Both the position numbers and the translations under genes were made by a program. This document shows positions 10,843 through 59,294 of a DNA stretch of 64,000 nucleotides, piece by piece. The notes beneath the pieces were generated by a model, which worked only from the letters and a program-made list of their open reading frames with translations, was not told where the DNA came from and did no database searches. This DNA comes from Loktanella sp. (GTDB lineage: Bacteria; Pseudomonadota; Alphaproteobacteria; Rhodobacterales; Rhodobacteraceae). Positions within the stretch are counted from its first letter, which is position 1; every line of letters starts with the position of its first letter. The stretch covers positions 74,121-138,120 of the forward strand of contig JAGXIQ010000112.1 in NCBI GenBank assembly GCA_024635625.1, written 5' to 3'.

Positions 10843-11435
10843 GGTTGCATCCGGTCTGCCAAGGCCCGCAGTATGCGGCCGGTTGCGCCCCAGATGTAGT
10901 AGGGGCCGAAAGGGACTGTATAATAATGCCGCATGTGGCCCTGCCACCGTCGCGATTGGATTATAAAATTGTTCGGGTTCGTGACGTGGGCCAATGGCAC
11001 CTCGAATACCTCTGTCACCTCGCCGATTTCAGCACGGGGAATGAAGTCGCCCCGGATCAGCCCTATGACCGGCGTCATGGAAAAACCGGTCACCGTTTCA
11101 TGTTCTGGCATTTGGCCCAGCACGTCGACACTGGAGCGGAGCAAGCCGACTTCTTCTTCTGCCTCGCGCAGCGCCGCAGCTGCCAAAGTAGGGTCGCCTA
11201 AATCCTGTTTACCACCAGGAAAGGCAATCTGGCCGGGGTGATGTTTTAGCGCGGCAGATCGCTTTGTCAGAAAAACAGTCTCTGTTTCCGGGCGAATAGC
11301 AATCAGAACGGCCGCAGGTCGCAGGATACGATCTACGGGGGCAAAAACGTCGTTGTTCAGATCGTAGTCGGTCGAGGGCCGGCCCGATCGGGCCAGCGCC
11401 TTTAGCAGTCTTGCGTCGAGATTAAGAATCGCCAT
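10839..11435 (-). CDS. Nudix hydrolase, CoA pyrophosphatase type
   Basis: AAVLI, LTKRS..LKHHPGQIAFPGGK, ALREAEEEVG, YYIWGATG; start moved to ATG 11435. Confidence 0.92.
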   Translation of the reverse strand: MAILNLDARLLKALARSGRPSTDYDLNNDVFAPVDRILRPAAVLIAIRPETETVFLTKRSAALKHHPGQIAFPGGKQDLGDPTLAAAALREAEEEVGLLRSSVDVLGQMPEHETVTGFSMTPVIGLIRGDFIPRAEIGEVTEVFEVPLAHVTNPNNFIIQSRRWQGHMRHYYTVPFGPYYIWGATGRILRALADRMQP

Positions 11436-12423
11436 CGGTAGCAACGGCCTCGAAACCAAGGGTTTCCGGCCTAAACTCGTAATGGGCACCGCAGAATTGA
11501 CAGTCAGCCGTCACGATGCCTTCGTCTGTCGTCATCGTTCGAATATCCTTGGCAGAATAGATCGAAAGGCTTTGCCGCACGCGATCTGCCGAACAGGTGC
11601 AGCCAAACGTGACAGGCTGCGGATCGTAGACACGCGGCTCTTCCTCGTGGAACAGTCGAACCAGCAAGTCAGTCGGCTGCACAGTCGGGCCGATTAGTTC
11701 CAGCGCGTCCACGGTATCCAACAGGATATTAGCACGACGCCAGTTTTCACCTTCGTCCTCGTCCAGAATATCCTCTGCCGCCAGCAGACCTTCTTCGCCA
11801 GACCCGCCTTCACCCGTCATAAGTGGAGAGGCCTTCGGCATGTGCTGAAGCATTACGCCGCCAGCGCGCCAGTGCTCACCCTCGCCCGCCAAGGTGCTGC
11901 GACCGTGAGTCAAAGAAAACCGGGTCGGGATCTGTTCGGACTGGGCAAAATACGTCTCGGCGCAAGAGGACAGCGAACCACCTGCGAGCGGGGTGATCCC
12001 CTGATAGGGCGTCGTGCCCTCACCTTGATCGATCAGAATCGCAAAATATCCCTTACCGATCTGCGTGAATGCGTCGCCGTTTGGGTCCAGCGTATCTTTG
12101 TCGTAGGCCGCATATGCACGAATCTTGGCTGGTTCGCCATCATCAGTCGGACCGTAGTAGTCGGTCGCAAGCAGACGAACAGGACCACCTGACCCGCGCA
12201 CTTGCAGGGACAGTTTCCAACGCAATTTCATCGTCTGACCAATCAACGCGGTCAGCAGGCACATTTCCGCGAGGAGCCCTTCGATTTGGGCGGGATAGTC
12301 GTGCTGACGCAGCACGTCCTCCAACACACCATCAAGACGGGCGACGCGGCCCCGGATATCAGAGGCGTCAAGCTGGAACGGCAGGACTGTGTCGTCCCAG
12401 GCGATACGAGAGCCAAGGGTCAT
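11422..12423 (-). CDS. hslO: Hsp33 redox-regulated chaperone
   Basis: DIRGRVARL, C-terminal zinc motifs CTCS and CQFC. Confidence 0.95.
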   Translation of the reverse strand: MTLGSRIAWDDTVLPFQLDASDIRGRVARLDGVLEDVLRQHDYPAQIEGLLAEMCLLTALIGQTMKLRWKLSLQVRGSGGPVRLLATDYYGPTDDGEPAKIRAYAAYDKDTLDPNGDAFTQIGKGYFAILIDQGEGTTPYQGITPLAGGSLSSCAETYFAQSEQIPTRFSLTHGRSTLAGEGEHWRAGGVMLQHMPKASPLMTGEGGSGEEGLLAAEDILDEDEGENWRRANILLDTVDALELIGPTVQPTDLLVRLFHEEEPRVYDPQPVTFGCTCSADRVRQSLSIYSAKDIRTMTTDEGIVTADCQFCGAHYEFRPETLGFEAVATDGDS

Positions 12424-12462
12424 GGGCTTTCCTTACAAGGTCGGATTTGGCATACCGCGACA

Positions 12463-12490
12463 ATATAGGCACGACAAGCGTTGGTCCAAG
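12463..12490 (-). promoter_or_regulatory. RpoH (sigma32) promoter of hslO
   Basis: Minus strand reads CTTG-N17-CCTATAT, matching the alphaproteobacterial RpoH consensus, about 40 bp upstream of a heat-shock gene. Confidence 0.75.
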
Positions 12491-12499
12491 GGGAGAGCC

Positions 12500-12943
12500 A
12501 TGATCAGACGGTATGGCGACACGCCCAAAAGTGGGCAACTCTATGGTTTGCGACCCGGTGCTTATGCGATTCTGCCGCGCAACGGCGCATTTTTGATGAC
12601 TTGGCAGGGCAGCCCCCACGACGAGTTGCAACTGCCCGGTGGCGGTATAGATTCGGGAGAAAGCCCCCTGCGCGCACTTCACCGCGAGGTGTTCGAGGAA
12701 ACTGGTTGGATCATCGCCCGGCCCCGCCGTCTGGGTGCGTTTCGCAGGTTTACCTACATGCCGGAATACAAGCGTTATGCGGAAAAGCTGTGCCACATCT
12801 ATATGGCGCACCCCGTGTTGCGGTTGGACCAGCCGTCCGAGATCAACCATACCGCCGTATGGGTCGATCAAAAAACAGCGTTGAAATCATTGGCAAATAT
12901 CGGTGACGCTGTCTTTTTGGCAAAGTATATTTCGCAACTTTAA
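12500..12943 (+). CDS. Nudix hydrolase
   Basis: MIRRYG start after GGGGAG; LPGGGID.GE.P..ALHREVFEETGW Nudix box. Confidence 0.92.
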   Translation: MIRRYGDTPKSGQLYGLRPGAYAILPRNGAFLMTWQGSPHDELQLPGGGIDSGESPLRALHREVFEETGWIIARPRRLGAFRRFTYMPEYKRYAEKLCHIYMAHPVLRLDQPSEINHTAVWVDQKTALKSLANIGDAVFLAKYISQL

Positions 12944-13069
12944 CGTTGGTCTTGCGCATGTAGGGGCCTGCGTCATTCAGGCATCCACCATAATTCATCA
13001 AGTCGTAAGGCGTCGCGCGTAGCTTTAGGACTTCGGCATTCGCCCAATTTGCGGCGACTGCCGCGGCAT

Positions 13070-14038
13070 ATGAAATTTGAAAACAATATTGGACAATCCA
13101 TTTTGGATACCCCAAATCGCGCCGACCTTGCTGGCCCTCCTCCGCAGGTCATAGTGGAATTACTGCGCTTGCTAGGTACAGCAGATGTTCTGGTTGGCGT
13201 GTACGATCCGAATGACACGCTGTGTTACGGCAACGCCGCATTTCGAAACGCCTATGGCGTTGCCCACGATACCTCGCCCACGTGGGAACAAATTATGCGC
13301 CACAATTTCGCGGCGGGTTTGGGGGCGGCACTTGATACCAAAGATCTGGATAACTGGATCGCATCGGCCCTCTCGCGCCGAGGTAAGGCAGCGGCCCGGC
13401 AGTTCGAAAGCGACCTGATAGACGGTAGGTAGTTGATGATAAACGAAACAATGCTGGAAAGCGGGTGGAGCCTGTTTATTGCGAGCGATGTCACAGCCCT
13501 GCGCGCATCAGAACGCGGCTTACGGCCGGCGCGGGATATTGCCCTTAAATCTGCACAGACCGGCCCCTTAACCGGGGTTTCGAACCGGCGGCAGGTGATG
13601 AATCAGATGGAGCTCGTTATTTCACAGGGTGAAACTGTTTCAGCCTGCGCCTGTTTGCTGAATATAGACCACTTCAAAAGTGTGAACGACCAATTCGGGC
13701 ATCAAGTAGGCGACACGGTCTTGACCAGTTTTGCTCGCACCATCCAACGATCAATCAGGGTTCGCGACAGCTTTGGAAGGGTTGGTGGTGAAGAATTCCT
13801 ACTGATCCTTACGGACCTTACCGCCGACATGGCCGCGCCCCGTATCGCAAGCATATTAAACGCTGTGCGCATTATCACGCTACCCGGCATGCCGCCCGAC
13901 TTTCGCGTGACATGTTCTGGCGGCCTGACGCAAATCAGGCCAGTCGACACCTTGGCAGAAGTATTTGGCCGCTGCGACGCAGCGCTCTATTCGGCAAAGC
14001 ATAGCGGGCGTGATCAGATCGTAGCAGATCAGGGTTAG
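13070..14038 (+). pseudogene. PAS-GGDEF diguanylate cyclase interrupted by an in-frame TAG at 13430-13432
   Basis: ORFs 13049..13432 and 13433..14038 share a frame (GAC GGT AGG TAG TTG ATG). The N-terminal part is PAS-like; the C-terminal part has SNRR, HFKSVNDQFGH, RVRD I-site and GGEEF. Confidence 0.85.
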
Positions 14039-17250: not shown

Positions 17251-17913
17251 ATGTTCACGACATTCCAAATACTGAAACGGACGGCACTGACATTGGCCAC
17301 AGGCGCAGTGATTATACTGACCCCGCAAGTGGCGGCGGCGCAACAACAGCAGGCGATCGTGGCGGGCGGCTGTTTCTGGTGCGTTGAATCGGACTTTGAA
17401 AGCGTGCCGGGCGTTGGGGACGTAATTTCCGGCTACACGGGCGGCACTGTCGCCAATCCGACGTACTCTCAGGTCGGTCGCGGTGGCACCGGCCATTTCG
17501 AAGCGGTGATGATCCCCTTTGATGCTTCCAAGGTAACATATCGCCACATCATGGATCTGTTCTTTCGCAGCGTCGATCCAACCGACGCAGGCGGGCAATT
17601 CTGCGACCGTGGCGACCAGTATCGCACAGCAGTTTTTGTGACAACGCAGGAACAGGCGGATATCGCGTCAGCAGCCAAGGTATCGGCGCAGAAGGACTTA
17701 GGGCGCCAAATCGTGACACCCATCGTTCAGGCCGGGACCTTTTATCGCGCCGAAGACTACCATCAGGACTACTACAAGGGTGACAAGTTGATCCTAACCC
17801 GTGGCGGCCCGAAACGGCAAAGCGAAGCCTATGATTTCTATCGTAAAGGCTGCGGCCGCGATGCACGTATCCAACAGCTTTGGGGTACCAACGCGCCGTT
17901 CATCCACCACTAG
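17251..17913 (+). CDS. msrA: Peptide-methionine (S)-S-oxide reductase with an N-terminal signal peptide
   Basis: [40 protein letters not shown]; RBS GGGAGG before ATG 17251. Confidence 0.95.
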
Positions 17914-18785
17914 GCGCGGTCAGGCCTGAAGTCTTCAAGATCCCTTAGGTCAGGAATGACATCGGCGGTGCCGGGCCGCGTGACCATCAGTGCCGCAGCT
18001 CTAATGGCAAGGTTGATCGCCTGCGCCATCGGGTGCCCCCGATCGAGACCAGCAAGGACGTAGCCGGTAAATGTGTCACCCGCACCGGTCGTATCGACCG
18101 GTGTCACCGGCATTGCATCAAAATGGCGGTGGCCGTCTGGCCCGAACCAGTCGGCGCCATTTTTGCCCAATGTCACGATCACGTCGCGGATGCCCAGCGT
18201 TTCGGGTCGCTGGCCGATGGCTTGCTGCAATTGATCCGCTTCGACCTGATTCAGGATCAGTAAATCGATATGCGGCAAGACTGCCTTGACCCGGTCCGCA
18301 TCGAATGGCGCAGCAGCATAGGCAACCTTCAGTCCCATCTTTTTGCCCAGTGTGGCAGCGGTGCGTTGCAAGTTCGTTTCGTTTTGTATCAGCAACCAGT
18401 CGCCCGTTTCGGCCTCTGTCATCGCCTCTTGGAGGATCGCTTGCGGGATTGCGTCATTTGCACCCGGAAACAGAATGATCATATTCTCGCCTTGGGGGTC
18501 GACAGCGATGATGGCCTGCGCGGTATCTTCGTCTACTCGCGCAATAAAGCGAGTATCGACGCCGTATTCCATCAAGCGATCAACAGCCCATTCGCCGTCA
18601 TCACCGACGGCACCGATGTGGTGAACGATCGCCGCGGCACGGGCGGCGGCAACCGACATGTTCGTGCCCTTGCCGCCAAGAAACACCTCTCTTTGTGTCG
18701 ATGACAGTGTTTCGCCGGCGACAGGAATGTGCGGGACGGCATAAACGAAGTCGGCGTTGATAGAGCCAAGGTTCCAGATTGCCAT
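17910..18785 (-). CDS. rbsK: Ribokinase / PfkB sugar kinase
   Basis: GSINAD, GGKGTN, GAVGDDG, LQNET-like [14 protein letters not shown]; ATG 18785. Confidence 0.85.
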
Positions 18786-18786
18786 A

Positions 18787-21042
18787 TTAACCAACCTTAC
18801 AGGCGGCAAATACCGCCATATTCAAAATGTCATTCACAGTGCTAACGGTCGAACAGATCTGGATCGGCTTGTCGATGCCCGATAGAATCGGCCCGATGAT
18901 CGTCGCCCCTGCCATTTCCTGCATCAACTTTACCGATATGCTGGCAGAATGCCGCGCAGGCACCACCAGAACATTGGCCGGCCCTGTCAGACGGCTGAAC
19001 GGGTAATGCGCCTGTGCTGCAGGATTCAAAGCTACGTCGACGGTCATCTCTCCTTCATATTCGAAATCGACACCACGCGCGTCAAGGACCGTCGGTGCAA
19101 TGTGCATTTTCTCGGCACGTTCAGACACCGGATAGCCAAAAGTGGAAAACGACAGGAAGGCTACGCGCGGCTCAAGGCCAAGATCGCGGGCGACGGCCGC
19201 GCCACGCTCTGCGATATCGGCAAGGTCGTTCTGGTCGGGCCATTCGTGCACCAGTGTATCGGCGATCAATACAATACGGCCACGGTTCAAAACAGCAGTG
19301 ACACCGACAGCACCGTCGTGTGGGCCTGCGTCAAAGACATGGTTAATCAATTCAAGCACATGGGCAGATTTACGGGTCGCACCGGTAACCATCCCATCGG
19401 CGTGACCATGCGCCAGCATAAGGGCGGCGAATACGTGACGATCGCGGGCGGCAAGGCGGTGGACGTCCTGCCGGTCATGCCCCTTGCGCTGCAGGCGTTC
19501 GTACAGAAAGGTCTTATAAGTCTCTAAGTGGGGCGTATTGGCTGCGTTGACGACTTCCAATTCCTCTATCGCGTCGCCCAGACCTTCTGCATTTAACATA
19601 ACCTCGACGTCCTTAGTCCGCCCAATGACGATGGCTTTTCCCAGCCCTTGGCGCTGATAGGCGATTGCGGCACGCAGGACGCGTGGATCGTCACCTTCGG
19701 TGAAAATCACGCTTGATTGTGCCTGTCGCGCTCGGGCGTTCAGACCGCGCAGAATGTTCGCCGTTGGATCCATCCGGGATTTGAGGGAAGCCTCGTATGC
19801 CTCCATGTCGATGATCGGACGGCGGGCGACACCGGTGGCCATGCCGGCCTTCGCGACCGCTGGCGGGATACGGTGGATCAGGCGGGGATCAAAAGGCGTG
19901 GGAATAATGTAATCGCGGCCGAAGGTCAGTTTGGTCCCGTAGGCGACCGCGACCTCTTCGGGTACATCCTCGCGCGCCAACTGAGCAAGAGCATGGGCGC
20001 AAGCAATCTTCATCTCGTCATTGATCGCGCGGGCGTGGATATCCAGTGCGCCGCGAAACAGATAGGGAAAGCCTAGGACGTTGTTTACTTGGTTCGGATA
20101 GTCGCTTCGCCCTGTTGCGACTATCGCATCGGCCCGGACGGCGCGGGCCTCTTCTGGCGTAATCTCTGGGTCCGGGTTTGCCATGGCAAAGATCACCGGA
20201 TTAGGGGCCATATCTGACACCATTTCGGGGGTAACAGCCCCTTTTGCGCTGACACCAAGGAACACGTCAGCCCCCTTCATCGCATCCGCAAGGGTGCGAG
20301 CGGGCGTGTTAGCCGCGTGCGCGGACTTCCACTGGTTCATACCTTCGGTGCGGCCCTGATAAATCACGCCCTTCGTATCGCACATGATGCAATTGTCGTG
20401 TTTCGCGCCCATGGACTTCAATAATTCTAGACACGCGATACCCGCCGCTCCTGCGCCGTTCAGCACGATCCGCACATCCTCGATCTTCTTGCCGCTAATG
20501 TGCAAAGCGTTCAACAAACCGGCGGCGCAGATAACCGCGGTGCCGTGCTGGTCATCGTGAAAGACGGGAATATCCATCTCTTCCTTCAGACGCTGCTCGA
20601 TGATGAAGCACTCGGGCGCCTTGATATCTTCTAGGTTGATGCCGCCGAATGTTGGCCCCATCAGGCGGACGGCATTGCAAAATGCATCAGGGTCTTCGGT
20701 GTCCAACTCAATATCGATGGAGTTGATGTCGGCGAAGCGCTTAAAAAGGACTGACTTACCTTCCATCACCGGCTTAGAGGCCAACGCGCCGAGGTTGCCA
20801 AGACCAAGCACCGCGGTGCCGTTGCTAATGACGGCAACGAGGTTGCCCTTGTTTGTATAGTCATAGGCCGTTGCTGGATCGGCGTAAATTTCCTCACAGG
20901 GGATCGCGACGCCTGGGGAATATGCGAGGCTAAGGTCACGCTGGGTCGTCATGGGGACGGTTGCCTGTACCTCCCACTTGCCTGGTGTCGGGGCGATATG
21001 GAACGCCAAGGCATCCTCTCTTGTCAGTTTAGCCTTGGTCAT
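18787..21042 (-). CDS. maeB: NADP-dependent malic enzyme with C-terminal phosphotransacetylase-like domain
   Basis: LSLAYSPGVA, SNGTAVLGLG, KPVMEGK, FHDDQHGTA, GRSDYPNQVNN, DFEYEGEM. Confidence 0.97.
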   Translation of the reverse strand: MTKAKLTREDALAFHIAPTPGKWEVQATVPMTTQRDLSLAYSPGVAIPCEEIYADPATAYDYTNKGNLVAVISNGTAVLGLGNLGALASKPVMEGKSVLFKRFADINSIDIELDTEDPDAFCNAVRLMGPTFGGINLEDIKAPECFIIEQRLKEEMDIPVFHDDQHGTAVICAAGLLNALHISGKKIEDVRIVLNGAGAAGIACLELLKSMGAKHDNCIMCDTKGVIYQGRTEGMNQWKSAHAANTPARTLADAMKGADVFLGVSAKGAVTPEMVSDMAPNPVIFAMANPDPEITPEEARAVRADAIVATGRSDYPNQVNNVLGFPYLFRGALDIHARAINDEMKIACAHALAQLAREDVPEEVAVAYGTKLTFGRDYIIPTPFDPRLIHRIPPAVAKAGMATGVARRPIIDMEAYEASLKSRMDPTANILRGLNARARQAQSSVIFTEGDDPRVLRAAIAYQRQGLGKAIVIGRTKDVEVMLNAEGLGDAIEELEVVNAANTPHLETYKTFLYERLQRKGHDRQDVHRLAARDRHVFAALMLAHGHADGMVTGATRKSAHVLELINHVFDAGPHDGAVGVTAVLNRGRIVLIADTLVHEWPDQNDLADIAERGAAVARDLGLEPRVAFLSFSTFGYPVSERAEKMHIAPTVLDARGVDFEYEGEMTVDVALNPAAQAHYPFSRLTGPANVLVVPARHSASISVKLMQEMAGATIIGPILSGIDKPIQICSTVSTVNDILNMAVFAACKVG

Positions 21043-21453
21043 GGGCACCTTTTCCTTCCGCTTTGATTATCGCTGCGAAGGACCATTAAGGCAGGTTTGC
21101 CGAGAGCCGTCCACTGCACTGTCCCGACCTTTGTTTCCCATACAGAGCACGCGAGAAGAAGGGTTTTGAGGTGCCGAAAAGGATCACCGACAACCCTTGC
21201 AGGAATGGCCAGGCGCCTCTGATGTCACGGCAATCATCTACAAACATTTGGTCTGTGTGCTATCACAACATCAGCAGTCTGCTGTTTTCAGGGCATGCTT
21301 TTCTGGATCAAGACTGAACCGTTCTATGTGGTTATCGAGGACGGCCAGCGTCCTAGTTTGGCGACCGAGATGGACTTTGCCGGTGCCTGCGTGATCCAGC
21401 AATTTAATATTCTTTTTGGACATGTTAGGCAGCCGCAGGGTGAGGTGAATGTC

Positions 21454-24099
21454 ATGTCTGAGACCATAAATGCTGTCGTGACGCCTATGATGGCGCAATA
21501 TCTTGACCTGAAGGCGGGGTATCCAGATGCGATCCTGTTCTATCGCATGGGCGACTTCTACGAGATGTTCTTCGACGACGCCGTCGCGGCCGCATCCGCC
21601 TTAGACATCGCCTTGACCAAGCGCGGCAAACATTTGGGCGAAGATATCGCCATGTGTGGCGTACCAGTGCACAGCGCAGAAGGTTACCTTTTGACACTGA
21701 TCCGAAAGGGCTTTCGGGTTGCTGTCTGCGAACAGATGGAAGATCCCGCAGAAGCCAAAAAGCGTGGGTCGAAATCCGTCGTGAAACGCGACGTCGTGCG
21801 GCTGGTGACCCCGGGCACCCTGACCGAAGACACGCTGCTAGACGCGCGGCGTCACAACTTTTTGGCAGCAATTGCGCAGGTCAGGGATGTAACGGCCTTG
21901 GCGTGGGTCGACATCTCGACCGGGGCACTGCGGGTCATGGATTGCCCACCAGTTGGCCTAGGCCCTGAACTGGCGCGGCTGGTCCCGCGCGAGGTTCTGA
22001 TTGCTGATGGGGCAGAAGGCGCGTTCCGAGATATCGTCAGCGAAAACGGCGGCAGCTTGACGCCTTTAGGGCGGTCCGCATTCGACAGCACGCAAGGTGA
22101 AAAGAGGTTATGTACGCTGTTCGGCGTCGGATCGCTGGATGCTTTTGGCAGTTTCAGCCGGGCCGAGGTCGCGGCGTTGGCGGGGCTGGTTGAATATCTG
22201 GACATCACGCAGAAAGGCAACCTGCCCTTGCTGCGGCCCCCTGTGCAGGAAAACCGGGCCGCAATCATGCAGATTGACGCCGCGACACGACGCTCGCTGG
22301 AATTGACGCATGGCATGGGTGGTGGGCGGTCGGGGTCGCTATTAGACGCAGTGGATCGGACAGTTACGGCAGCGGGCGCACGGCTTTTAGAACGGCGCTT
22401 ATCTTCACCTTCGCGTCGGATAGATATCATCACTGCGCGGCAGGATGCTGTCGCAACGCTTGTAGACCACCCAACCCTGACGGAAGACCTGCGTGATCAC
22501 TTGCGCGGCGTACACGACCTTGATCGCGCCTTATCGCGGCTCGCGCTTGATCGGGGTGGCCCGCGCGATATCGCAGCGATCAGGAATACCATTGCGCAAT
22601 CTGGAATCCTACATCAGGCTCTAAACAAGAGCATTCTATCCGATCTACTGGAAGCCGCACATTGGGATCTGGTAGGGCATGAAACGCTTTTAGCGCTCCT
22701 GGATGTCGCACTGGTCGCTGAGCCACCGCTTTTGGCACGCGACGGCGGTTTCATCGCGCCGGGGTATGACGATGCCTTGGACGCCGCCCGAAAACTGCGC
22801 GACGAGGGACGCAGCGTGATCGCGCAAATGCAGGCAGATTTCATTAAGCAAACCGGGATTAACGCGCTAAAGATCAAACATAACAACGTTTTGGGTTATT
22901 TCATCGAAACAACTGCGACCCACGCAGAGCGGATGATGGCCCCGCCGTTGTCCGAAACCTTTATACACCGCCAAACGACAGCCAACCAAGTGCGCTTCAC
23001 CACCATCGAATTGAATGAAATCGAATCCCGCATATTAAACGCCGGTGGTGAAGCGCTAGAGATCGAAAAGCGTCTCTATTCGAACCTTTGTGCCGCAATT
23101 CTGTCGGAACAGGCTGCCTTAGGCCAGTTGGCACGGGCGCTGTCAGAGTTCGATCTTGCCGCCGCACTCGCGCATCTGGCGCGTCAGGATGACTGGGTCA
23201 GGCCGCAGATCGACGACAGCCGCGCATTTAACATCACCGGCGGGCGCCATCCCGTGGTCGAAGAAGCGTTACGTAAATCCGGTACCGCGTTTGTCGCCAA
23301 TGACTGCGACCTGACGGACACGCCTATCTGGCTACTAACCGGTCCGAACATGGCTGGTAAATCGACATACTTGCGGCAGAATGCCTTGATCGCAGTTCTG
23401 GCACAGATGGGTGCTTTCGTACCCGCAAAGGCTGCGCAAATCGGCGTCGTCAGCCAGATCTTTAGTCGCGTCGGCGCATCCGACGATTTGGCCCGGGGCC
23501 GATCAACGTTTATGGTAGAGATGGTAGAAACGGCGGCGATCCTTAATCAGGCGGACGACCGGGCCCTTGTTATCCTTGACGAGATCGGACGCGGCACAGC
23601 TACCTACGACGGATTGTCGATTGCGTGGGCTACACTGGAACATTTGCACGACGTGAACCGGTGCCGGGCCCTATTCGCCACCCACTACCACGAGATGAGC
23701 AGCCTGTCCGCCAAGTTGGATGGCGTAGACAATGCGACAGTCAGCGTTAAGGAATGGGATGGCGACGTCATATTTCTGCACGAAGTCAAAAAGGGCACCG
23801 CTGATCGCAGCTACGGTGTGCAGGTCGCGCGCTTGGCAGGTCTACCCGCGGTCGTCGTTGCACGTGCAAAAGTCGTTCTGGAGGCCCTAGAAAAGGGAGA
23901 GCGTGAAGGGGGGACGTCCCGACGGGCGTTCATCGACGACCTGCCCCTATTTGCAGCCGCACCGCCACCGCCGAAACCCGCCCCTTCGCAAGCGTCGGCG
24001 GTAGAGGCGCGGTTGAAGGATATCCTGCCTGACGACCTGACTCCTAAGGACGCGCTTGCTTTGGTCTACGAGCTTCGGGGCCTCGTCGCGCCTGACTAG
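21454..24099 (+). CDS. mutS: DNA mismatch repair protein MutS
   Basis: TPMMAQY, FYRMGDFYEMF, TGPNMAGKST, STFMVEM, DEIGRGT, SYGVQVA; start near ATG 21454, not 21295. Confidence 0.98.
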   Translation: MSETINAVVTPMMAQYLDLKAGYPDAILFYRMGDFYEMFFDDAVAAASALDIALTKRGKHLGEDIAMCGVPVHSAEGYLLTLIRKGFRVAVCEQMEDPAEAKKRGSKSVVKRDVVRLVTPGTLTEDTLLDARRHNFLAAIAQVRDVTALAWVDISTGALRVMDCPPVGLGPELARLVPREVLIADGAEGAFRDIVSENGGSLTPLGRSAFDSTQGEKRLCTLFGVGSLDAFGSFSRAEVAALAGLVEYLDITQKGNLPLLRPPVQENRAAIMQIDAATRRSLELTHGMGGGRSGSLLDAVDRTVTAAGARLLERRLSSPSRRIDIITARQDAVATLVDHPTLTEDLRDHLRGVHDLDRALSRLALDRGGPRDIAAIRNTIAQSGILHQALNKSILSDLLEAAHWDLVGHETLLALLDVALVAEPPLLARDGGFIAPGYDDALDAARKLRDEGRSVIAQMQADFIKQTGINALKIKHNNVLGYFIETTATHAERMMAPPLSETFIHRQTTANQVRFTTIELNEIESRILNAGGEALEIEKRLYSNLCAAILSEQAALGQLARALSEFDLAAALAHLARQDDWVRPQIDDSRAFNITGGRHPVVEEALRKSGTAFVANDCDLTDTPIWLLTGPNMAGKSTYLRQNALIAVLAQMGAFVPAKAAQIGVVSQIFSRVGASDDLARGRSTFMVEMVETAAILNQADDRALVILDEIGRGTATYDGLSIAWATLEHLHDVNRCRALFATHYHEMSSLSAKLDGVDNATVSVKEWDGDVIFLHEVKKGTADRSYGVQVARLAGLPAVVVARAKVVLEALEKGEREGGTSRRAFIDDLPLFAAAPPPPKPAPSQASAVEARLKDILPDDLTPKDALALVYELRGLVAPD

Positions 24100-54770: not shown

Positions 54771-55717
54771 CGGCGGTCCTGTGGTGGGGGTAAGGTCGAT
54801 AGCACCACGTGGCGTAAATCGGTCAACGCAGGGTGTGCAAGGTCAGTGGATAGGGCATCCCATACGGTGGGCAAGAAAGATGCGTACTGCGGTTTTCCGC
54901 GTTGAATCAGCCGCGCAAAGACGCCGAGGATACGCAGGTTGCGCTGGGCGCCAAGCGTTGCCAGTTGTGCGGACAACGTCGCAGGCTCTATTCCGGTGGC
55001 AGTGGCAAAGCGCGCAATCTGTCGGGTGACCTGCGTCGAAGAAACAGTCCTGCGAATATCTCGCAGTAGCGAGGCGAGATCGTAGCCACGTGGGGCAACG
55101 AAAGCGTCCTGAAAGTCCAGAAGCCCGATCCGGTCAAGCCCACTGCGATTAGGCCGCCAGATCAGGTTCTCTGCGTGGAAGTCTCTTAGTGCGACCCGGT
55201 CCGCAACAGGGGCAAAAGCCTCTAGCGCCGCCTGCGTGGCCGCGACCAAAGGGGCTGGATTACAATGGTGGTAGGTTTCTGCTGTGATCGCGACCATCTC
55301 TGCACCGACTTTGGGCGTCATCGACTTTAACTGTGACGGAGGTGTCATTGAATCAAGCGCGACCAACACGTCGACGGCGGCGTCATACAGAACTTGCTCT
55401 GACGTTGTGGCGGTGGCGATCGCTAAGGTGTCGTGACCCAGATCTTCTAACAGTAGAAAACCCGCCACTTGATCACAGTGCAGCACCTGCGGTGCAGATA
55501 GTCGGTGATCCGTCAGCCAGCGGGCAATGTCTATAAAGGGTCCAACAGTTTCGCCCGTGGTTGGGTTAGCGTCCATCAGGATCGCGCTTTCGCCCCAAGG
55601 GCCTGTCAAACGTGAGTATTTGCGTGAGGATGCATCGCCAGCCAACGTCTCGGTTGACCAATCCTGCCATTGCGTCCCTGACAGGAACAATCTGCGCACC
55701 TTATCCCGTTCAAACAT
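54767..55717 (-). CDS. amgK: Anomeric sugar kinase AmgK (aminoglycoside phosphotransferase family)
   Basis: LAGDASSRKY.R, LLEDLG, LRDFHAENL, LLDFQDA, GYDLASL, QRNLRILGVFARL. Confidence 0.85.
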   Translation of the reverse strand: MFERDKVRRLFLSGTQWQDWSTETLAGDASSRKYSRLTGPWGESAILMDANPTTGETVGPFIDIARWLTDHRLSAPQVLHCDQVAGFLLLEDLGHDTLAIATATTSEQVLYDAAVDVLVALDSMTPPSQLKSMTPKVGAEMVAITAETYHHCNPAPLVAATQAALEAFAPVADRVALRDFHAENLIWRPNRSGLDRIGLLDFQDAFVAPRGYDLASLLRDIRRTVSSTQVTRQIARFATATGIEPATLSAQLATLGAQRNLRILGVFARLIQRGKPQYASFLPTVWDALSTDLAHPALTDLRHVVLSTLPPPQDRR

Positions 55718-56177
55718 GCAAGTCGCCCAGCAGTGCGTGCCAACGTGGGCTACCGGTTAAGTTAAGGGTATGGTGGTCCGCATGGGCGGCAAAATCGCAA
55801 ATCAGTGCATCGGCGGGGGTGTCTGATCCAAGCCTATCCGGCCATTCGATTAGGCATATTGCTTGATCAAGTGCATCGTCGAGTCCCAGTTCAAGGACTT
55901 CTTGGGGGTCGGTCAGGCGATAAAGGTCACAATGCCAGATCTCGACCTCGCCCGCGTCATACGTCTGTACCAACGTAAACGTGGGAGACGGTACGTCTTC
56001 GGCCTGATTGCTGAGTCGTGCGCGGATAAGTGCGCGGGCAAAGGTTGTTTTTCCAGCGCCAATGTCTCCTGTCAGCAAAAGGGTATCGCCCGCGCCCAAC
56101 TTGGGTGCGATCATGCGGGCAAGCATGGCGGTAGCGTCGGCGTCGGCCAACTGAAGTCGAGTGAAGGTCGGAGACAT
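55710..56177 (-). CDS. tsaE: tRNA t6A biosynthesis ATPase TsaE
   Basis: GDIGAGKTTFAR, VPSPTFTLVQTY, HCDLYRL, LIEWP. Confidence 0.97.
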   Translation of the reverse strand: MSPTFTRLQLADADATAMLARMIAPKLGAGDTLLLTGDIGAGKTTFARALIRARLSNQAEDVPSPTFTLVQTYDAGEVEIWHCDLYRLTDPQEVLELGLDDALDQAICLIEWPDRLGSDTPADALICDFAAHADHHTLNLTGSPRWHALLGDLHV

Positions 56178-56217: not shown

Positions 56218-57826
56218 TCAGCCGTTAAGGGCGCGGGGTTCAATAGCGGTTATCAATTGTCGCGCTGGGGCAACCAGGCGTTCGACCCGCGTGGTAAACC
56301 GCACAAGCGTCATTCCGCCACTCAGGGCGCTGACCTCGCAATCAAGACGTCGTCCGTTGTGCAGCAATAACTGATCAGACACCATGGGACGTTCTTGGCG
56401 CATGCGGCTAAACTCTTCTATTTCACCCCACAAGGCAGTGGGGGGCTGCGTTTGCCTTCCAAATCCGCAGGGCACCGCGCAGGTCATGGACCGTCATCTG
56501 GCCGTCTTCATCTGGACGCCAAACCTTTTCGTAAGCGGCATTGGTCATGATTAGAGTATTGCCGGACGAAAAAACAGCAATCGCGTCAGGCACGGCGTTT
56601 AGCACTGCTTGGCTTGTTTCTATTTCTGATCGGAAGCGGCGCGTCAAAGAGACTTCGGCACTGATATCCTCGAATAGGAAGGCCAGCGCTCCGTCGGGAT
56701 GTGGTCGCCCGGTGACACGGAAGGTCTGCCCGTCCGGCATGTCCCACCACTCTGTATAGGTTCCATTCATGGCCGCAGCTTCCAGCGCGGAAAACTGTTC
56801 GCGCCAGGAATTGTAGTTCTTAGGTTCGGGCAATTTTCGCGTTTCGCGAAGGCGATCCAAAACGCGGTCGATGTTGGGCCGTGCCGACAGAAACGCGAAG
56901 GGTAGGCCGGTCATGTCCAGAAGCGCCGGATTAAAAATCGCCAGTTGCCGCTTCTTGTTAAAGATGGCGAGGCCAGTGGAAAGATGCGCAAAGGTTTTAC
57001 CGAGTGTCTGTTGAAAATCCCGCTGCGCGCGTTCGGCCCGTACGGTCGCATTTGCGTCGATTGCAAAATAAAGAACTGATCCGTCCTTCGGGACAGCCGT
57101 TATCTCGAACCAATGTTCAGCTTTTTCGCCCGGCGATTGAAGGGCATGCCGCCCTTCGAACGTGCGAGGGTCCGTCGGCAGAGGCGGTTGGATATCGGTA
57201 AAAAGCCGCTCTCCCGGCCATATCTGCTTGCTACGATCGCCGTGCGGCATCAGACGGTCGGCATAGGATAAATAGGCTGCGTTTGCCCAGATCAGCTCGC
57301 CTTGCGCATCCTCTCTACAAATGAGTTGCGGAGTGTCGCGAGCGATGAGGCGGAGCAGATTAAGCTCTTCCATCAAGGTGGCGCCCTCCAGTTCCTCGTA
57401 AGCGTGGGATCCCGTAGCGATGTCGCAGGCGTCAAGACTGACGCGTAACAGGCCTCGTTCTTCGGTCAAGGTAAGGGTTAGACCACAGTCGGGCGACCCG
57501 GGCACTACGACCTGTGCCCCTGGTTCGAGGCCTTTGAAATTGGCGCGTAAGTTCGGAAACTGGTGACTTAACACCTGAATCAGGGCCGCCTGATCAGACA
57601 TATCCATCGCTGTTTCGGCAATCAGCGCAGCGGCACTAGGCGAGGCATCGATCAAGGTGTCGCGATCAAACAGAAAGACTGGCGTCGCGTGGTCAGGCAA
57701 CCGGATTTCTGCGCGGCGGGAACTGCGGGTCGCCGTCAAGGCGACGATTTGGGTCAATCCATATAGGCCAATCAATGACAGGACACCGGCGGCGCCAAGA
57801 CGCAAGAGTTCAGCTGACTCGATCAT
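56218..57826 (-). pseudogene. divL: DivL-like multi-PAS protein (Rhodobacterales type, no kinase domain), frameshifted at the C6 run 56440-56445
   Basis: PAS repeats (LIWANAAY, LAIFNKKRQLAIFNPA, PDGQTFRVTGRPHPDGALAFLFEDIS). Frame 1 ends in AAPHCLVG*; deleting one C gives AAPTALWGE... and continues to the stop at 56218. It sits between regB and tsaE, where divL lies in related genomes (recalled), and has an upstream CtrA box. Confidence 0.75.
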
Positions 57827-57870
57827 TGCGATTCCCCGCTTTTTATACCTTTCAACCATCTGACGGCGAG

Positions 57871-57896: not shown

Positions 57897-59294
57897 TCAA
57901 TCCAAAATAGGCTGGTTCTTTCCTAAAGCGGGATAACGACCTGACGCTGTCCGGATCAGGGACCGCATCTGCCACGTCACCGTCACGATGGCCCCCGATG
58001 GCATGTCGTCCAACCGTCCAGACTGATTTCTGCGCGGGGCATTGGCAAAGGCCAACTGCGCGCCAGAACGTTCCAAAAGCGTTTTTGCAATGAACAGCCC
58101 CAGCCCCATGCCTTCATAGCCGGGCCGCCGCAAACCATCCAATGTAACGCGCTTGCGTCGCACGAAGGGGTCACCGATCCGTCCGATTACCGACTGCGGA
58201 AACCCGTGGCCGTCGTCGGCAATGCGCACGAAAACCTGCGTGTCGTTCCAACTGACCTCAATCCGGATTTGGTTTTGAGAGAAATCGACGGCGTTCTGTA
58301 TTAAATTACGCAGTCCGTGGATGATCTCTGGCCGCCGGGAAATGACAGGCTGGGGTGTGATGCATCCGGGTTCTGGCGCGATGTCGAACGAAACGTCACG
58401 TCCCCGCTGAATATGGGGTTCGGCGGATTCGCGCACGACAGTTTCCAAAAGGGCAGTCCGCAGATGCAGGTCATCCTTGCCTGCCCGACCCATGGATTGA
58501 AGGATATCGCGGCAACGATCGGCCTGTGTGCGGATCAGCAACGCGTCTTCCCGCAACTCTGGATAGTCGGCCAGATCTTCTAGCAATTCAGCGCTGACCA
58601 GTTTGATCGTTGCCAAGGGCGTACCAAGTTCATGTGCCGCGGCAGCGACTACGCCGCCCAAGTCGGTCAGTTTTTGTTCTCGCGCCAACGCCAACTGTGT
58701 CGCGAGTAAAGCATCGCCCATGGCGTTCATCTCTGTTGTCACCTGCCGGGCATAGATGCCCAGAAAAACGACGCCAATGACCAAAGAGGCCCAGAATCCG
58801 AAGTGGAGGAGGGGCGGCAGTAAAAGGAGTGTACCGTCTGCCAGTTGCAGCGGAACAGAGACAACGCTGATGACAGTGATCATCGCGATGGCCAGCACGC
58901 CAAGGGCGACGAAACTGACAAGGTGCAACACAGTGGCCGCGATCGTAACGGGTGCGAGGATTAACAGGGCGAAAGGATTGTTCAGCCCGCCGGTCAAATA
59001 CAGCAGCAACGCCAGTTGCACGATATCAAAGGCCATCATGGCGCTTGCTTCGCGCTCTGACAGACGCTTGTTTTCTGGGTAGATAAAACTGGTCAGCAGG
59101 TTCGCGACAATTGCAGCGCCAATGGTCATAGCGGCGGGGCCCGCCTCAATCCGCAGATCATAATAGCGTGTCGCGACAAGGATTGCGATGATTTGGCCGC
59201 CAATGGCAAACCACCGCAGGATCAGTAGGGTGCGCAGTCGCACCCAATTGCTCCGCTCGCGGTCCTGCAGCGCGTCAAGATCGTCGGGGGTCAT
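57897..59294 (-). CDS. regB: Redox sensor histidine kinase RegB/PrrB
   Basis: RLRTLLILRW, GGLNNPF quinone-binding motif, AHELGTPL, DRCRDIL (redox Cys), GMGLGLFI. Confidence 0.97.
   Translation of the reverse strand: MTPDDLDALQDRERSNWVRLRTLLILRWFAIGGQIIAILVATRYYDLRIEAGPAAMTIGAAIVANLLTSFIYPENKRLSEREASAMMAFDIVQLALLLYLTGGLNNPFALLILAPVTIAATVLHLVSFVALGVLAIAMITVISVVSVPLQLADGTLLLLPPLLHFGFWASLVIGVVFLGIYARQVTTEMNAMGDALLATQLALAREQKLTDLGGVVAAAAHELGTPLATIKLVSAELLEDLADYPELREDALLIRTQADRCRDILQSMGRAGKDDLHLRTALLETVVRESAEPHIQRGRDVSFDIAPEPGCITPQPVISRRPEIIHGLRNLIQNAVDFSQNQIRIEVSWNDTQVFVRIADDGHGFPQSVIGRIGDPFVRRKRVTLDGLRRPGYEGMGLGLFIAKTLLERSGAQLAFANAPRRNQSGRLDDMPSGAIVTVTWQMRSLIRTASGRYPALGKNQPILD

Follow-up and report, generated by a model that had tools for sequence, protein, structure and literature searches.

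A one-base gain in a cytosine run interrupts divL in a metagenome bin of a marine Loktanella-like roseobacter

A single surplus cytosine interrupts divL in the genome of an uncultured marine Loktanella-like roseobacter, within the 64,000-nucleotide stretch of DNA (the window) analysed here. On balance, we think it probable that this is a genuine and very young slippage mutation, which truncates the fourth PAS module of the encoded protein in a lineage already without its gene transfer agent (GTA) and fla1 flagellar clusters. Read directly, the minus strand at the lesion is GCA GCC CCC CAC TGC CTT GTG GGG TGA, with a current tract of C6 against an ancestral, intact tract of C5. Skipping one C yields PTALWGEIEEFSRMRQERPMVSDQLLLHNGRRLDCEVSALSGGMTLVRF... 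in a frame that stays open until the TGA at 56218–56220, and reading the run as C5 restores a protein of 535 aa (Table 1). The original prediction was correct in these coordinates and translations (C6, stop at 56423, C5 frame ending at 56218) and in holding that one surplus C in a homopolymer breaks divL, as the frame reading and the intact relatives confirm. Its view that C5 completes a final PAS domain in a 535-aa protein likewise agrees with an alignment of relatives that is colinear up to the C-termini. The public gene call starts at the ATG at 57826 and gives the 467-aa product; a further upstream ATG at 57859 would give an ORF of 478 aa (56423..57859, minus strand). Within the 3′ remnant, public annotation calls a separate gene of 61 aa, and alignment with relatives revealed no second lesion in the 73 downstream codons.

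Table 1. Coordinates of the divL lesion, its neighbours and other disrupted genes; positions are those of the window unless a contig of the bin is named
Feature	Location	Strand	Description and basis
C6 homopolymer	56440..56445	-	Reads G6 on the plus strand; the conserved frame needs C5 (GCC CCC A), one base fewer
Premature TGA, shifted frame	56423..56425	-	
divL 5′ part, current reading	56423..57826	-	467 aa: native residues 1-462, then HCLVG and TGA
divL 3′ remnant, other frame	56218..56439	-	73 conserved codons (TALWGEIEEF...RALNG) and TGA
N-terminal hydrophobic helix, probable membrane anchor	57737..57814	-	About residues 5-30, AELLRLGAAGVLSLIGLYGLTQIVALTA; translation
Fourth (last) PAS-like module, split mid-way by the frameshift	56290..56584	-	AlphaFold2 model of P0005; Pfam PAS_8, first half
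regB-type sensor histidine kinase, directly upstream	57897..59294	-	Pfam HisKA, HATPase_c, 6TM_PilS; conserved synteny
tsaE, directly downstream	55710..56177	-	Pfam TsaE, E = 1e-34
PAS-GGDEF diguanylate cyclase gene	13049-14038	+	Amber TAG at 13430-13432 (…LIDGR*LMINE…); GGEEF kept downstream
Degraded RcGTA-type cluster	Contig C97, ~17700-23160		Deletion at ~22948; removes terminase, portal, protease, capsid, g6-g8 and most of the tail-tube gene
fla1 remnants	Contig C85, ~11090-13480		43-aa motB stub, flgN, rod-binding gene, fliK cut at the contig end
flgD with TAG and frameshift	Contig C142, 1-900		fla1 remnant

Comparison with relatives showed that the early stop is not where this protein family ends, a possibility that the original prediction had left standing. 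In a six-frame search, all 12 other genomes of the genus carried one intact homologue each, in an open frame of 535–559 aa that aligned through residues 522–545 of the read-through query; the genome of the window (G000) was the sole one with a stop followed by a second piece in a different frame. The read-through protein aligned without gaps to 13 relatives and was colinear with them up to the C-termini (C-terminal region ALRIWKANAAPTALWGEIEEF in G000, ALRMWKSQAAPTALWREVEDF in the closest relative). A collection of 5.8 billion proteins held more than 1,700 homologues, almost all of 526–563 aa, together with a few shorter entries of 442–497 aa, one of which comes from a 2-kb contig. With frames and homologues of these lengths, a naturally early stop was rejected. 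The nearest homologue in that collection was only 68% identical and the 467-aa product was a singleton; exact look-ups confined the 467-aa and 61-aa products to one assembly, deposited at both JGI and NCBI. A scan of metagenomes found no relative above 40% identity, and a scan of a genome collection returned L. fryxellensis and L. atrilutea alone, at 67–68%. The truncated product is 69% identical over 461 residues to its closest full-length homologue, P0005.

That the window gene encodes a short, PAS-only DivL of the Rhodobacterales type is well supported, an assignment resting on its PAS-only architecture, on homology to long forms bearing a VSYELRTPL motif, and on published descriptions of the short form (PMC9430884, PMC9143464). 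Pfam recognized PAS_4, PAS_7 and the first half of PAS_8 and nothing else in both the broken and the read-through protein; HisKA/HATPase, receiver and other output domains were absent from both. The original prediction had called the gene a kinase-less DivL-type protein adjoining regB, which these domains and the regB gene directly upstream bear out; the gene order is regA-senC-regB-divL-tsaE, then an APH-like kinase gene, a nucleotidyltransferase gene and addB/addA. In other alphaproteobacterial families, the best matches were proteins of ~800 aa. Two of these long homologues (L152 and L153), with open frames of 821 and 833 aa and E values of 5e-35 and 4e-24, carry a histidine-kinase core after the aligned PAS region, and their H-boxes read 'HVSYELRTPL' or 'NVSYELRTPL', with Tyr in place of the phospho-acceptor His. 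This replacement is the hallmark of the DivL pseudo-kinase.

The long DivL of Caulobacter and Rhizobiales and the window protein share a homologous PAS region (25–30% identity over ~360 residues), in which the final PAS module of the window protein matches the one that immediately precedes the DHp domain of the long form; whereas the long form has HisKA and HATPase with Tyr for His, the window protein stops after its PAS modules. Like the short DivL of Rhodobacterales (for example Rcc00042), the window gene specifies a single N-terminal helix and tandem PAS modules, without a DHp/CA kinase domain and without a DivK partner, has a PAS region homologous to long DivL, lies beside regA-senC-regB and spans ~530 aa, a likeness to Rcc00042 judged from architecture, neighbours and published descriptions. 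Unlike those short forms, the window copy has a +1 frameshift that removes its last 73 residues, half of PAS-4. Published work describes short DivL as promoting CckA kinase activity and CtrA phosphorylation and as influencing GTA production (PMC9430884, PMC9143464, PMC6363796); for the Rhodobacter capsulatus DivL (rcc00042) it reports a stimulation of the CckA kinase, of CtrA phosphorylation and of RcGTA production (PMC9143464, PMC6363796, citing Westbye 2018). The DivL–CckA–CtrA–GTA biology on which the original prediction drew agrees with these papers.

We gauged the effect of the cut on an AlphaFold2 model of P0005 (537 aa, mean pLDDT 82.5), in which an N-terminal helix (residues 2–33) is followed by four PAS-like modules (51–134, 170–259, 286–389 and 417–514) linked by long helices. 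Residue 462 of the G000 protein, the last native one, aligns with P0005 residue 464. On this model PAS-4 of the truncated product retains two strands and two helices and loses the helix at 467–477 together with the last three strands (483–514). Because three of the five strands of the PAS core and a helix would be missing, PAS-4 is not expected to fold, and the truncated DivL is probably misfolded or inactive, its function lost or severely impaired.

The source is a JGI metagenome bin of 177 contigs, all at least 5 kb, totalling 3.58 Mb, with 92.5% completeness and 3% contamination. Its longest contig (139 kb), JGI Ga0371479_11000725 from sample 3300033553, contains the window, with the divL site in the interior of the contig. 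To take a census of lesions, we compared the whole bin by tblastn with 2.38 Mb of Loktanella sp. M215 (G008), the nearest genome, using a codon-usage filter to drop shadow frames and gene borders; these two sources accounted for about 50 apparent frame splits from stop-to-stop ORFs, which were rejected as false. Among 1,588 orthologue-like genes with a median identity of 84% to M215, frameshifts in homopolymers were confined to divL (C6), one T7 site and possibly one G5 site, in a genome with ~1,850 runs of at least six bases, ~780 of them G/C. Two to three such frameshifts against so many runs argue against systematic homopolymer error, no genome-wide excess of homopolymer indels was found in these conserved genes, and the accuracy of the assembly is short-read-like. 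The same census revealed six to eight in-frame stop codons in well-conserved genes (including RadC with TGG>TAG, a MATE transporter with two stops and a DUF455 gene with AAG>TAG) and three to four frameshifts outside homopolymers. Since lesions of these kinds seldom arise from consensus error, the bin contains genuine inactivating mutations at a normal level, in less than 1% of genes.

The in-frame stops (C4:55316, C81:2446, C106:9744 and 9000, C28:40622, C74:9236 and C142:~437) are nearly all TAG, several of them TGG>TAG (RadC, a transporter and a MATE pump), in a sample too small to call a bias. Reassignment or suppression of the stop codon was rejected: a search for a CUA-anticodon tRNA found none, and the stops stand in for a variety of residues (W, K, Q and D).

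The genome that carries this divL has already lost the best-known outputs under CtrA control, the RcGTA-type and fla1-type clusters. GTA, flagellar and c-di-GMP systems belong to the CtrA regulon in the Rhodobacterales studied (PMC7232146, PMC8116508). In M215 the RcGTA-type cluster is complete (terminase, portal, S78 protease, HK97 capsid, tail tube, DUF2460, Gp84_N/BR0599 and GTA_TIM); in G000, ~6 kb from residue 75 of g1 to residue 112 of the tail-tube protein is gone from within a continuous contig, and the deleted head genes were found nowhere else in the bin. The g11 and g12 genes are frameshifted, and g15 (GTA_TIM) has an internal deletion of residues 689–1136 plus a change of frame. 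Incomplete RcGTA-like clusters are common in Rhodobacterales genomes. A 27-kb fla1-type flagellar cluster of M215 (motB, flgE, flgK, flgI, flhA, fliI and others) is also deleted within a contig, C85; the remaining fliK, cut at a contig end, adjoins an unrelated gene. A second flagellar set on the 10.4-kb contig C139 (flgK/L/I, two flagellins, flaF, flbT, fliG, fliP and fliN) is apparently intact and shares just 26–57% identity with the lost fla1 genes; it probably represents a fla2-like system, so that motility may persist.

Lesions were also present among the c-di-GMP genes, three of which are hit: an HD-GYP phosphodiesterase gene is frameshifted at ~11425 of contig C14, with no homopolymer at the site; a PAS-GGDEF-EAL gene has an in-frame TAG at C1:17615; and the GGDEF gene of the window carries an amber codon, which makes it the second broken signalling gene within the same window as divL. 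Such damage to three systems under CtrA control makes a real divL lesion biologically coherent. The chpT gene is present with its frame open. Neither ctrA, which occurs in all 12 relatives, nor cckA, which has an orthologue in 11 of the 12, was found in the bin, and no ctrA turned up on an unbinned contig of the sample, the best JGI candidate coming from another sample. We nevertheless do not read their absence as loss: the two regions fall at contig ends (C177/C46 for ctrA, C141/C80 for cckA), and their neighbours in M215 (gyrA, ligA, recG and mnmA beside ctrA; lon, tgt and HU beside cckA) are missing as well, so that essential regions are lacking and the absences reflect gaps in the metagenome-assembled genome (MAG). 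A missing gene in this MAG is thus no evidence of loss.

We then considered the age of the lesion. The frame of divL is disrupted relative to intact orthologues and half of PAS-4 is lost, as in a pseudogene. The G000 DivL is 65–68% identical to relatives whose RegB is 82–87% identical, and intact DivL pairs at the same RegB distance share 64–69%; this equality gives no sign of relaxed selection on divL, and neither an accelerated rate on the RegB-scaled comparison nor additional lesions in the downstream frame were found. The clean downstream frame and the normal rate indicate that the lesion, if real, is evolutionarily very young. The situation resembles unitary pseudogenes that follow loss of a trait, in that a regulator is inactivated where the clusters it controlled (GTA and fla1) are already deleted or degraded. 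It differs from usual gene decay in that divL has one lesion and no rate acceleration, with chpT and the second flagellar set intact. If the regulatory module is decaying at all, the process would thus have only just begun.

One clean lesion in a conserved gene would match an assembly error or a captured minority variant as well as a real mutation. The main rival to a genuine mutation is that the true sequence is C5 and divL intact, which we regard as unlikely overall yet well short of negligible. The lesion is a single base within a homopolymer, in a fragmented and incomplete bin with some contamination; the frame beyond it is perfectly conserved, DivL has evolved at a normal rate, and the exact product occurs in one assembly only, with no close relative among the metagenome contigs scanned. 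An intact chpT points the same way, and together with the intact second flagellar set it suggests that the pathway is perhaps still used, which makes a fixed knockout less expected. Weighing against an artefact are the census, with at most three homopolymer frameshifts in its conserved genes, the interior position of the site on the longest contig, and the real lesions of the bin (nonsense codons and multi-kb deletions), which are no rarer than potential errors. The loss-of-function mutation and the sequencing or assembly error that the original prediction had offered as alternatives both stay realistic, except that 'lab-acquired' is inapplicable to a contig from a metagenome bin. A different possibility is that the gene still works, either because a 467-aa protein carrying three and a half PAS modules is active or because +1 slippage restores some full-length protein; we consider this quite improbable. 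A +1 slip on GCC CCC|C ACT would give exactly the conserved AAPTALW, CCC-C is a slippery site prone to +1 errors involving tRNA-Pro, a tRNA-Pro(GGG) gene is present, and the first 462 residues of DivL are fully conserved. Yet neither a slow codon or stop in the A site nor a properly spaced Shine-Dalgarno-like stimulator is present, and the arrangement is conserved in no relative, so that spontaneous slippage is expected at error level and programmed +1 frameshifting was rejected; as for the short product, the predicted loss of most PAS-core strands makes a folded fourth domain unlikely.

The original prediction had raised, as its headline idea, a slippage-prone phase switch, a C5/C6 contingency locus that reversibly toggles DivL and CtrA-dependent traits ON and OFF. 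The break does fall exactly in a homopolymer of a signalling gene and the downstream frame is intact, as expected for a transient OFF state, and there is a precedent: in Bordetella pertussis, phase switching is the gain or loss of one C in a C6 run of bvgS. Tract length in relatives, which had been proposed as a check, speaks against such a switch. The Ala-Pro codons are GCC CCC (C5) in 3 of 11 relatives and interrupted in the other 8 (GCG CCG, GCC TCA, GGT CCC, GCA CCG and others), and no run longer than C5 was found at the site in any of the 11, all of which are in frame. A tract this short, built from the preferred Ala and Pro codons in a genome of 58% GC, is best read as a by-product of codon choice, and it is unremarkable among the G/C runs of the genome. 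The OFF allele occurs in none of 12 relatives and in no listed homologue except possibly a few shorter entries, and the two main outputs, GTA and fla1 flagella, are already destroyed. Classical contingency tracts, such as the poly-G/C tracts of Neisseria, Haemophilus and Campylobacter or the bvgS C run of B. pertussis, are mostly at least eight bases long, conserved as tracts and length-polymorphic between strains. As at those loci, a one-base gain in the divL run frameshifts a member of a two-component pathway; unlike them, the divL tract is C5/C6, not conserved and without documented length polymorphism. Phase switching is thus not supported by these sequence comparisons, and as an evolved trait it appears very improbable. 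The one-base gain is an ordinary product of slippage, for which reversion is possible in principle and selection for switching is not indicated. About as improbable is a low-frequency reversible switch that would give DivL-ON and DivL-OFF subpopulations in a free-living roseobacter; if true, it would produce heritable heterogeneity in the fla2-type flagellum, cell differentiation or c-di-GMP signalling, analogous to the Bordetella bvgS switch.

The course of events under a genuine young mutation would be simple. Replication slippage would have lengthened the C run of a commonplace Ala-Pro dicodon (GCC CCC) by one base, from C5 to C6, and translation would terminate after five aberrant residues. 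Lacking a helix and the three final strands of PAS-4, the product would probably be misfolded or inactive, as judged from the model. The mutation would have arisen when the RcGTA-type and fla1-type clusters were already destroyed and several c-di-GMP genes broken, and a weakening of selection on DivL after the loss of these outputs is plausible. The result would be a plain loss-of-function allele, fixed or predominant in the population that was sampled, and not an evolved switch.

By itself, the finding amounts to an everyday one-base frameshift in a regulator gene already known, seen here in a metagenome bin, and the divL copy is a new broken representative of a known family. The case of ctrA and cckA illustrates how easily 'pathway loss' is over-read from a MAG. 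If the allele is real, it would be a natural divL truncation that probes the need for the last PAS of short DivL, and it would offer a natural snapshot of the dismantling of a CtrA network, in which outputs go first and regulators later.
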